From an uncultured Mollicutes bacterium (GTDB taxonomy: Bacteria > Bacillota_I > Bacilli_A > Acholeplasmatales > Anaeroplasmataceae): a DNA stretch of 64,000 nucleotides. Below the pieces are notes generated by a model. It did no database searches. It was not told the DNA's origin and worked only from the letters and a program-made list of their open reading frames with translations. The stretch lies in NCBI GenBank assembly GCA_945923475.1, contig CAMELE010000001.1, forward strand, positions 99,875 to 163,874, given 5' to 3'. Below are positions 54,204 to 55,218 of this stretch, one piece after another. The first letter of the stretch is position 1, and each line of letters opens with the position of its first letter. The translations under genes and the position numbers were made by a program.

Positions 54204-54232
54204 AGGAGATAAGAATTACTTCTTATCTCCTT
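54204..54232 (-). terminator. hairpin terminator
   Basis: Stem aaggagataagaa / ttcttatctcctt. Confidence 0.5.
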
Positions 54233-54722
54233 TTTCTTGAATAAAAGTTTTAATTGGTTCACTTACAAAGCAACAAATATCACACGCAACTTTTACTGAC
54301 TCTTCTGGATCATGTTTCAAGTATAGTGCGGTTGTTGCATAAGGAGCGCCCGCTCCAATAGCAAAATAGTCTTTGATCTCTCTTACCATAAACTTACAAA
54401 TATGGAAAAGATGCCCTTTATAAGCAATAAGAAATTCATTTTTTAGGAATCCATCACCGATAAGAGTATTTTTCCATTTTGAAAATTCAATAATGTAATT
54501 AAGAATTTCTCGTTCATTAGCTTCAACTGGCTGATGATTCTCCATGTAAAGCCACATTAAGCTTTGTTCATCGCCATAACCAACTCCGCCAAGAATCATA
54601 TCGTTAATCTTAGCAATTTTAGCAAAATTAACATTAGGTTCTTTTTCATAGCCATTAGTAAGAATACTATCAGCACTCATTACAATTCTATCATCATAAA
54701 CTTTAGCTGCGACAACGCTCAT
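54216..54722 (-). CDS. HslV/proteasome-beta-like Ntn-hydrolase-fold protein
   Basis: C-terminal AIGAGAPYATTAL...VACDICCF resembles HslV (AIGSGGPYA...DIAGDICIYTN). The likely start MSVVA gives an N-terminal Ser. Confidence 0.45.
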   Translation of the reverse strand: MSVVAAKVYDDRIVMSADSILTNGYEKEPNVNFAKIAKINDMILGGVGYGDEQSLMWLYMENHQPVEANEREILNYIIEFSKWKNTLIGDGFLKNEFLIAYKGHLFHICKFMVREIKDYFAIGAGAPYATTALYLKHDPEESVKVACDICCFVSEPIKTFIQEKGDKK

Positions 54723-54723
54723 T

Positions 54724-55218
54724 TCAATCCTCCAACTGACAGATATAAACATCTTCATGATGGAGAATTTTTTTAATCATTAATTGAATAATATCCCAGT
54801 CTCCTCCACCAAGACCACACCCAATTTTATAAGGAAAAGCAATCGGAATATAGTCAGGAACTAATTTATTTAAATTTTCTAAACAACTAGCAAATGCTTC
54901 ATAATTAGTGTATCTACACGGGCCATATCCATAATCATATTGAGCGAATAAACTTGCTACTCTATGACCATCTATGGTAGTAGTGCAAGCAACTGCGCCA
55001 AGTAAAATATCATCAGGTGGATTTTCTAATCCTGCGACTTGTGCTTCCGCGTTTTCAATAGTTTTTTTATAATCTACATAGACTTCAGGCCAACGAATAC
55101 GAATTTGTTTGGCAAGACCCGCACCCATAACGCCTTGACAATTTACCTGATGACAAATTACAATTTTAGGGGATAAGTCTAATAGACTTTTTTTATAATA
55201 AGTAAGATTTTTAACCAC
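54724..55218 (-). CDS. macro-domain protein (ADP-ribose binding/processing)
   Basis: IVICHQVNCQGVMGAGLAKQI...GCGLGGGDW motifs. GTG start with GGAG RBS. Stop lies 1 nt from the HslV-like start. Confidence 0.55.
   Translation of the reverse strand: MVKNLTYYKKSLLDLSPKIVICHQVNCQGVMGAGLAKQIRIRWPEVYVDYKKTIENAEAQVAGLENPPDDILLGAVACTTTIDGHRVASLFAQYDYGYGPCRYTNYEAFASCLENLNKLVPDYIPIAFPYKIGCGLGGGDWDIIQLMIKKILHHEDVYICQLED

Follow-up and report, generated by a model that had tools for sequence, protein, structure and literature searches.

Two adjacent minus-strand genes of a gut phage, one encoding a macro-domain protein and the other an HslV-like peptidase with a proteasome fold, are probably functionally independent accessory genes that stand back to back. 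They are located in a 64,000-nt stretch of contig CAMELE010000001.1 (assembly GCA_945923475.1; hereafter the window), which comes from a phage genome of gut Clostridia with a length of ~190 kb and a GC content of 31%. The original prediction joined the two genes into an anti-defense module. This two-gene module is not supported, because the genes adjoin each other in one clade only, the macro gene decays in 6 of 15 close relatives, and the peptidase gene has a ribosome-binding site of its own. The most useful leads in this region are an orphaned and decaying gene similar to Adpp, the macro protein associated with the NAD+-reconstitution pathway NARP1, and a large family of phage proteasome homologs with an N-terminal serine (Ser1).

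Conservation of the pairing was examined from both sides, using 83 peptidase loci (29 clades at 80% identity, 6-kb neighborhood) and 80 macro loci (38 clades, 5-kb neighborhood). A macro gene directly upstream of the peptidase gene is confined to the clade of the window itself (HslV-like identity, at least 93%). The next HslV-like clade (66%–68% identity) either lacks it or has it 3.3 kb downstream of the peptidase gene, and the remaining clades have no macro gene within 6 kb. Neither a macro nor a NARP1 gene occurs within 6 kb of the peptidase in 26 of the 29 clades. Seen from the macro side, 13 own-clade loci adjoin a peptidase gene, two are 3.3 kb from one, and the 5-kb neighborhoods of the other 65 contain no HslV-like gene.

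The macro gene is disrupted in six of 15 close relatives, and the lesions differ from contig to contig. They include nonsense changes at W43 (L011), W141 (L013), and Q28 (L025), 1-nt frameshifts in L014 and L030, and multiple deletions in L001. Every relative checked has full-length copies of the RNA ligase gene, a 132-aa open reading frame (ORF), the peptidase gene, and a gene for a 239-aa phosphoesterase, and a 63-aa ORF is conserved in the close relatives save L001, where it was not found. Counted as 6/14 against 0/14, the disruptions give a one-sided Fisher P value of ~0.008. L001 is an exception: its peptidase gene also has in-frame deletions, and the contig may be poorly assembled. Amino acid identity on the same contigs is 84%–96% for the macro protein and 93%–100% for the peptidase. 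The macro protein diverges faster. This is the pattern of a dispensable gene and contradicts an obligate partnership with the peptidase.

Two other causes of the premature stops were rejected. The stops fall at Trp and Gln codons, as in stop-codon recoding, yet they are single changes at different sites on different contigs; frameshifts occur on two further contigs, and the regular ends of these genes are ordinary TGA or TAA stops. Generally poor assembly does not explain them either, as the RNA ligase gene, which is three times longer, and four other neighbors are intact on the same contigs.

Reading the sequence confirmed that the macro TGA is 1 nt from the ATG of the peptidase gene (Table 1). 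The macro ORF ends in CAG TTG GAG GAT TGA, and a single A separates this stop from the ATG. A GGAGG motif 6 nt before the ATG provides the peptidase gene with a strong ribosome-binding site. The macro gene most plausibly begins at the GTG at 55218; a GGAG stands 9 nt before this codon, and there is an overlap of 8 nt with the TAA end of the 132-aa ORF. Similar junctions are found nearby, with the three just upstream and one downstream at −4, −8, +1, and +1 nt. A crude gene call gives 55 minus-strand junctions, 16 of them no longer than 10 nt. Since short junctions are common across the operon, the 1-nt spacing is not special; it is probably a product of genome compaction and not of a functional partnership.

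A hairpin resembling an intrinsic terminator (54235–54200 with its T run) covers the end of the peptidase gene, whose last codons and stop lie in the 5' arm and loop. The predicted structure has a ΔG of −23.6 kcal/mol (z = −5.2), and none of 200 shuffled sequences was as stable. Its position makes the peptidase gene the final gene of its transcription unit, which most likely consists of the RNA ligase gene, the 63-aa and 132-aa ORFs, the macro gene, the HslV-like gene, and the terminator. The first three are probably cotranscribed with the pair and have overlapping junctions.

Outside its own clade, the macro family has a different genomic partner. Of the 67 macro loci in other clades, 37 have a NAMPT-family gene (Namat) immediately upstream, and 42 have one within the 5-kb flank. 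A PRS-like gene (Adps) and an isochorismatase gene (PncA) are usually 5' of Namat, and genes for NAD synthetase and a NADAR-domain protein are often found 3'. These neighbors constitute NARP1, with PRS-like Adps and NAMPT-like Namat. A macro gene is present in 15% of NARP1 operons (Osterman et al., bioRxiv 10.64898/2026.01.28.702374, January 2026). Its product, Adpp, converts ADP-ribose-1''-phosphate to ADP-ribose (ADPR), which lets NARP1 defeat the aRES NADase defense (same preprint). A role for the macro enzyme in phage counter-defense, which the original prediction had proposed, is plausible and has a published precedent.

Homologs of the window macro protein occur in this setting at several distances. 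Vibrio phage 184E37-2 has an Adps-macro-Namat operon in the order described in the preprint, and its macro protein is 34% identical to that of the window (BLASTP, 6e-21). Vibrio phage Gary, the source of the assayed Adpp, is not named among the phage matches listed, and 184E37-2, which has the same operon architecture, was used instead. Macro copies of gut phages directly 3' of Namat are 40%–50% identical to the window protein. One gut locus (L105, IMGVR_UViG_3300026522_000051, positions 1086–6636) has genes for an HslV-like protein, PncA, Adps, Namat, a macro protein, NAD synthetase, and NADAR, and the same arrangement is found in L107. The macro start overlaps the end of Namat, and the cluster is that of NARP1 with Adpp (NARP1-AP) extended by nicotinamidase, NadE, and NADAR.

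None of Namat, Adps, PncA, NadE, and NADAR was identified by tblastn in the 64-kb window. Single-sequence and profile scans of viral contigs with Namat retrieved no contig of the window's clade among the best 80 loci (at least 55% identity to the query), a selection that a divergent copy could escape. We therefore consider the macro gene a likely orphan that persists without NARP1 in this phage lineage.

The identity of the macro protein is well founded. It matches PHROG 335 ("phosphatase") at 7.5e-39. The match to the Pfam Macro domain (PF01661; 1e-3, 19.4 bits) is below the 22-bit gathering cut-off, which many homologs at 45%–50% identity clear. The AlphaFold2 (AF2) model, with a mean predicted local distance difference test (pLDDT) score of 94, has the three-layer alpha/beta/alpha macro fold. 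Foldseek matches include BT1257, Poa1p, DarG, and TARG1 (E = 1e-10 to 1e-8; template modeling [TM] scores, 0.66–0.80), and profile matches in the PDB include BT1257 (3e-17), DarG (5e-14), and SCO6735 (5e3b; 5e-12), as well as TARG1 and Poa1p. These fold and profile matches place the protein in the ALC1/TARG1-like class, in the Poa1p/SCO6735/BT1257 subgroup, as a member of the phage PHROG-335 (Adpp) family. Its motifs are H23-Q-V-N26-C-Q-G-V-M-G-A-G34, Q93, and G133-C-G-L-G-G-G139. Both Gly-rich loops that bind the ADP-ribose diphosphate (G29–G34 and G133–G139) are present. H23, N26, G34, Q93, G137, and W141 are invariant in the family alignment, and at least 90% of 120 homologs retain G29, G133, G135, and G138.

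The original prediction also suggested that the macro protein reverses DarT-type ADP-ribosylation. In this case, it would be a DNA ADP-ribosyl-glycohydrolase that removes DarT2-type modifications from thymidine, an orphan, antitoxin-like counter-defense enzyme similar to AdfM or SCO6735. Profile alignment places Q93 at the position of DarG Lys80, TARG1 Lys84, and SCO6735 Gln85, and N26 at that of SCO6735 Asn27 and DarG Asn22. The SCO6735 residues Gln85 and Asn27 are both needed to cleave thymidine-linked ADP-ribosylated DNA, and SCO6735 and the DarG macrodomains are among the closest solved profile relatives. A phage macro protein that defeats DarTG2 is already documented. In 13 of 14 relatives, a gene for NADAR, the family of DarG1-type guanine-ADP-ribose hydrolases, stands at a distance of two genes. 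The catalytic lysine of DarG and TARG1 is absent, however, and the DNA-holding residues Lys34 and Lys89 of SCO6735, read from the profile alignment with Val25, correspond to Ala33, Gly97, and Gln24. The PADLOC DarG match spans only residues 21–61 and that of the NCBIfam model antitoxin_DarG residues 22–61, the latter with 43.6 bits against a cut-off of 250. The dominant partner of the family, NARP1, handles free ADPR derivatives. Reversal of DarT2 is thus the weaker fit; the shared Gln and Asn speak for it, the replaced lysine speaks against it, and we regard it as doubtful.

A third reading assigns the macro protein to RNA repair. It would clear ADPR-1''-phosphate produced by tRNA 2'-phosphate removal, in the manner of Poa1p, or take ADP-ribose caps off RNA ends. 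Poa1p ranks among the best structural matches. In the window, the macro gene is between the RNA ligase gene and Thg1-like and YqeY-like genes, with a polynucleotide-kinase-like gene and phosphoesterase genes nearby, and a Thg1-like neighbor occurs in 6 of 38 macro clades and is directly adjacent at three loci. The Thg1/YqeY pair is specific to the window, though, and is missing in 13 of the 14 relatives that keep the macro gene, and linkage to NARP1 is much more common. The Pfam scans revealed no Tpt1/KptA 2'-phosphotransferase; like those with PHROGs and NCBIfam, they covered the window ORFs of at least 100 aa except ~15 and none that were shorter. Taken together, a role in RNA repair is highly unlikely.

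The second gene encodes a peptidase of the HslV type, as proposed. It matches PHROG 1040 ("peptidase HslV family") at 4e-19, the Pfam Proteasome match is below threshold (16.8 bits; cut-off, 22.4), and no NCBIfam model, including those for HslV, matches. An AF2 model built with 110 homologs (pLDDT, 93.9) has the N-terminal nucleophile (Ntn) hydrolase fold. Its best solved match is the beta-proteobacterial proteasome homolog (BPH) from Thiobacillus (PDB 5ovt; TM score, 0.84; E = 2e-12), followed by HslV and 20S beta subunits. The model has helices H1–H4 and no H5, with H2 at residues 70–88 and a 7-residue pore loop at residues 89–95.

The predicted N-terminal Ser nucleophile agrees with both the model and the alignment. 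The ORF begins with MSVVAAK, and M1, S2, D18, K35, and G48 are invariant across the 110 aligned homologs. After Met excision, these yield Ser1, Asp17, Lys34, and Gly47 (the oxyanion glycine), the counterpart of the proteasome set Asp17/Lys33/Gly47. In a scan of 1.84 billion representative sequences, the family has at least 200 clusters (50% identity) at E ≤1e-30 and 604 at E ≤1e-10. Nearly all members are ~165 aa long, and profile position 1 coincides with residue 1 in nearly all of 150 representatives. Among 148 new representatives, 117 begin with Met-Ser and 20 with Met-Thr (137 together), and such a Ser/Thr interchange at position 2 is what an N-terminal nucleophile predicts. The loci are on viral contigs or on phage-like contigs of metagenome-assembled genomes (MAGs) of Clostridia, and proteasome-fold proteins occur in at least 45 viral clusters of BFVD. 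Judged by these sequences, the protein belongs to a phage-borne, stand-alone family of putative Ser1/Thr1 proteasome-fold hydrolases that is large and almost entirely metagenomic.

For the function of phage HslV or proteasome homologs, the only literature found was a bioinformatic survey from 2021 that reports none. It named the phage-associated groups PPH, AAH, and CPH (Fuchs, Alva, and Lupas 2021; PMC8665760). A PPH identity was ruled out, since PPH is defined as ~140 aa in length and lacks helix H2 (PMC8665760), and the window protein has H2 and 168 aa. The most common neighbor in the family is a dUTPase gene, immediately upstream in 13 of 29 clades, followed by other genes of nucleotide metabolism. 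No AAA+ unfoldase is among the recurrent neighbors in the 29 clades. In another HslV-like clade (L003/L004), a Nuc_deoxyri_tr2 gene (nucleoside 2-deoxyribosyltransferase-like; 5537–6004) overlaps the peptidase start by 4 nt, and NAD synthase and NMNAT-like genes are ~5 kb upstream.

As stated in the original prediction, there is no partner HslU in the window; no HslU/ClpX-type unfoldase was found among the scanned window ORFs (~15 of at least 100 aa and all shorter ones were outside the scans). The absence of an unfoldase gene would also be expected if the peptidase hijacked the host HslU/ClpY (CodX) unfoldase to form a hybrid ATP-dependent protease with altered specificity. Bacillus CodW uses a Ser1 nucleophile, and the short pore loop resembles that of HslV, unlike the long acidic loop of BPH. 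However, the best structural match is to BPH, a protein that works without a partner unfoldase. True HslV is only marginally similar in sequence (profile E values of 1e-3 to 1e-2), and the NCBIfam HslV models do not match. The formation of such a hybrid is improbable.

Our preferred explanation is that two independent accessory enzymes likely end one tightly packed early or middle operon. The macro protein is a PHROG-335 member whose homologs normally stand directly behind Namat in a PncA-Adps-Namat-macro(-NadE-NADAR) cluster. In that setting, Adpp strips the 1''-phosphate from ADPR-1''-phosphate made by aRES-type NADases, and NARP1 can then rebuild NAD+. With NARP1 missing from the lineage, the macro gene is probably an orphan under relaxed selection, and it is repeatedly pseudogenized in relatives. 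The intact protein most likely still binds ADP-ribose and hydrolyzes a 1''-substituent. The HslV-like protein is predicted to be a stand-alone Ser hydrolase, active after Met excision, that probably self-assembles into a ring chamber like that of BPH or HslV. It would act without a phage-encoded unfoldase and would be kept independently of the macro gene.

Several observations weigh against this explanation. The absence of NARP1 applies to a 64-kb window of a ~190-kb genome, and a divergent NARP1 elsewhere is possible. The macro family occurs without NARP1 in many isolate phages (1274 records, with a far smaller published count of NARP1 operons that contain macro); Adpp activity may therefore be one of several roles. 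Of the four key residues named for Poa1p, the window protein has His23 and Asn26 (H23 and N26) but Val for Ser30 and Ala for Gly33, and the NARP1-embedded copy of Vibrio phage 184E37-2 likewise lacks Ser30 and Gly33. The peptidase is flanked by ADP-ribose enzymes in 13 of 14 relatives, with the macro gene upstream and the NADAR gene downstream, and it directly precedes PncA-Adps-Namat in a sister clade (L018/L019) and in L046. A looser link between the peptidase and an NAD/ADPR island retains a small probability because the peptidase borders such an island in three related clades.

An extended form of the original module idea is that macro, peptidase, and NADAR form a cooperative counter-defense island, in which the peptidase would degrade host ADP-ribosyltransferase or NADase effectors and the macro and NADAR proteins would erase their products. 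The order macro, peptidase, 75-aa ORF, NADAR is found in most clade members, and the macro and peptidase genes are tightly spaced and most likely cotranscribed. Against this stand the 26 of 29 clades described above, the prevalence of dUTPase as a neighbor, and the loss of the macro gene, with an unchanged peptidase, in 6 of 15 relatives. Synteny among the three linked clades, which are large gut phages related to one another, may thus be inherited and not selected. A cooperative island is very improbable. We give equally little credence to the idea that the Ser1 peptidase alone is a counter-defense protease, an unfoldase-independent chamber that destroys host immune effectors or toxins based on NAD or ADP-ribose. 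It would explain why the peptidase borders the NAD/ADPR island (macro, NADAR, and NARP1) in three clades and, if true, would be the first function for any viral proteasome homolog.

Table 1. Features at the macro/peptidase locus and in the adjoining cargo slot (window coordinates)
Feature	Position	Strand	Description
Macro-domain gene	54724..55218	−	164 aa, GTG start
HslV/proteasome-fold Ntn-hydrolase gene	54216..54722	−	168 aa, without propeptide
Gene junction	54720..54733	−	GGAGG 54733–54729, TGA 54726–54724, A 54723, ATG 54722–54720
RNA ligase	55784–57172	−	462 aa
63-aa ORF	55606–55797	−	
132-aa ORF	55211–55609	−	Cys-rich
Intrinsic-terminator-like hairpin	54190..54235	−	Perfect 16-bp stem, then T run
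Promoter-like site	54201–54173	−	3' of terminator, belongs to cargo slot
Variable cargo slot	52332..54201 (swapped region, 52055–54161)	−	3' of terminator; here 128-aa ORF, YqeY-like gene, Thg1-like gene

The slot 3' of the peptidase gene is swappable. In 13 of 14 close relatives, the occupants are a 75-aa ORF, a gene for a NADAR-domain protein, and a membrane-like ORF of 65 aa (at about 6560–8280 in L007–L030 and L084, with an extra ~820-bp insert in some), and the slot is empty in L001. The Thg1/YqeY cassette is a window-specific replacement. At the other end of the transcription unit, an HNH/homing-endonuclease gene (57180–57776, minus strand) is situated between the RNA ligase gene and an upstream regulator, and it is missing in all eight aligned relatives, which are contiguous across that point. 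The 132-aa protein has its Cys-rich part at the C terminus, overlaps both neighbors, and is intact in all relatives; it has no match in Pfam, PHROGs, NCBIfam, or PADLOC.

The window has a GC content of 28%–41% (mean, ~31%). Its genes code for topoisomerase II subunits, RNase H, DNA ligase, a DnaB-like helicase, Pol III alpha, PhoH, anaerobic ribonucleotide reductase, a flotillin-like protein, and several HNH/GIY-YIG endonucleases. A search for tRNA genes in it found none. A megablast query of 6.5 kb matched no isolate phage, which leaves this phage without a close relative in culture. Contigs with 90%–98% DNA identity are viral contigs of 110–197 kb and one contig binned in a Clostridium MAG, and more distant HslV-like loci are in MAGs of Clostridia and Lachnospiraceae.

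Other genes in the region were also recorded. A 600-aa ORF (62127–63929, minus strand) has Pfam matches to the shoulder domain of the major vault protein (8e-22) and to a Vault repeat, which is unusual for a phage; its length is counted from the first start codon, and the L001 homolog has 828 aa. NrdD (12383–14512, minus strand) is divided into three successive ORFs (ATP-cone and N terminus, middle, and glycyl-radical C terminus), which suggests introns, inteins, or mobile insertions. The polynucleotide-kinase-like P-loop gene (49117–50228, minus strand) has ~25 N-terminal residues at 50228–50154 and the remainder at 49560–49117, with an HNH endonuclease ORF (49610–49996) between the two parts, and it is possibly intron interrupted or split. 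At the left end of the window, which is differently oriented, an ORF (4213–4827, minus strand) combines a receiver domain of the response-regulator type with a weak LytTR DNA-binding domain. On one relative contig with an HslV-like gene (L005), a 932-aa protein (9183–11981) ~3 kb downstream matches Pfam RdRP (PF05183), a eukaryotic-type RNA-dependent RNA polymerase family.

These results remove a tempting but unsupported module and assign the macro gene to a family for which a role in counter-defense (NARP1-AP against aRES) has newly been demonstrated. The repeated, gene-specific pseudogenization in circulating gut phages offers a natural example of a helper enzyme after pathway loss. The phage proteasome-fold hydrolases, a large family with an interchangeable Ser/Thr nucleophile, are a tractable target for biochemistry.

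Among known systems, the window macro protein is in the same family as Adpp (PHROG 335), with the common motifs H-x-x-N-C-x-G-x-M-G-[SA]-G and A-Q-x-x-Y-G-Y; the comparison was made with the copy of Vibrio phage 184E37-2, and the assayed protein is that of Vibrio phage Gary. It differs in being outside a NARP1 operon and pseudogenized in 6 of 15 relatives. The ALC1-like proteins SCO6735 and BT1257 (PDB 5e3b, 2afc, and 2fg1) are its best profile and fold matches. Like them, it has Gln at the position of the catalytic Lys of TARG1 and DarG and conserves the Asn that positions it; unlike SCO6735, it is phage-borne and lacks the DNA-contacting lysines and Val25. The DarG2 macrodomain and AdfM, a single macro domain encoded by chimalliviruses for counter-defense, have the same fold, and Asn22 is conserved in the window protein. 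In contrast to DarG2, Lys80 is replaced by Gln93, and only ~40 residues match the DarG hidden Markov models, far under the cut-off.

The window peptidase shares with BPH and HslV the Ntn alpha-beta-beta-alpha fold, an N-terminal nucleophile with Asp17/Lys33/Gly47, and a compact subunit that lacks H5. It differs in having Ser in place of Thr, a short non-acidic pore loop, no hslU partner, a phage-borne gene, and an identity of 15%–23%. Shared features place it with the AAH/CPH/PPH group (PHROG 1040), although not with PPH itself. Like the proteins of this group, which are found in Caudovirales and in Firmicutes-associated phage DNA (PMC8665760), it stands alone, has no propeptide, and keeps the catalytic triad.

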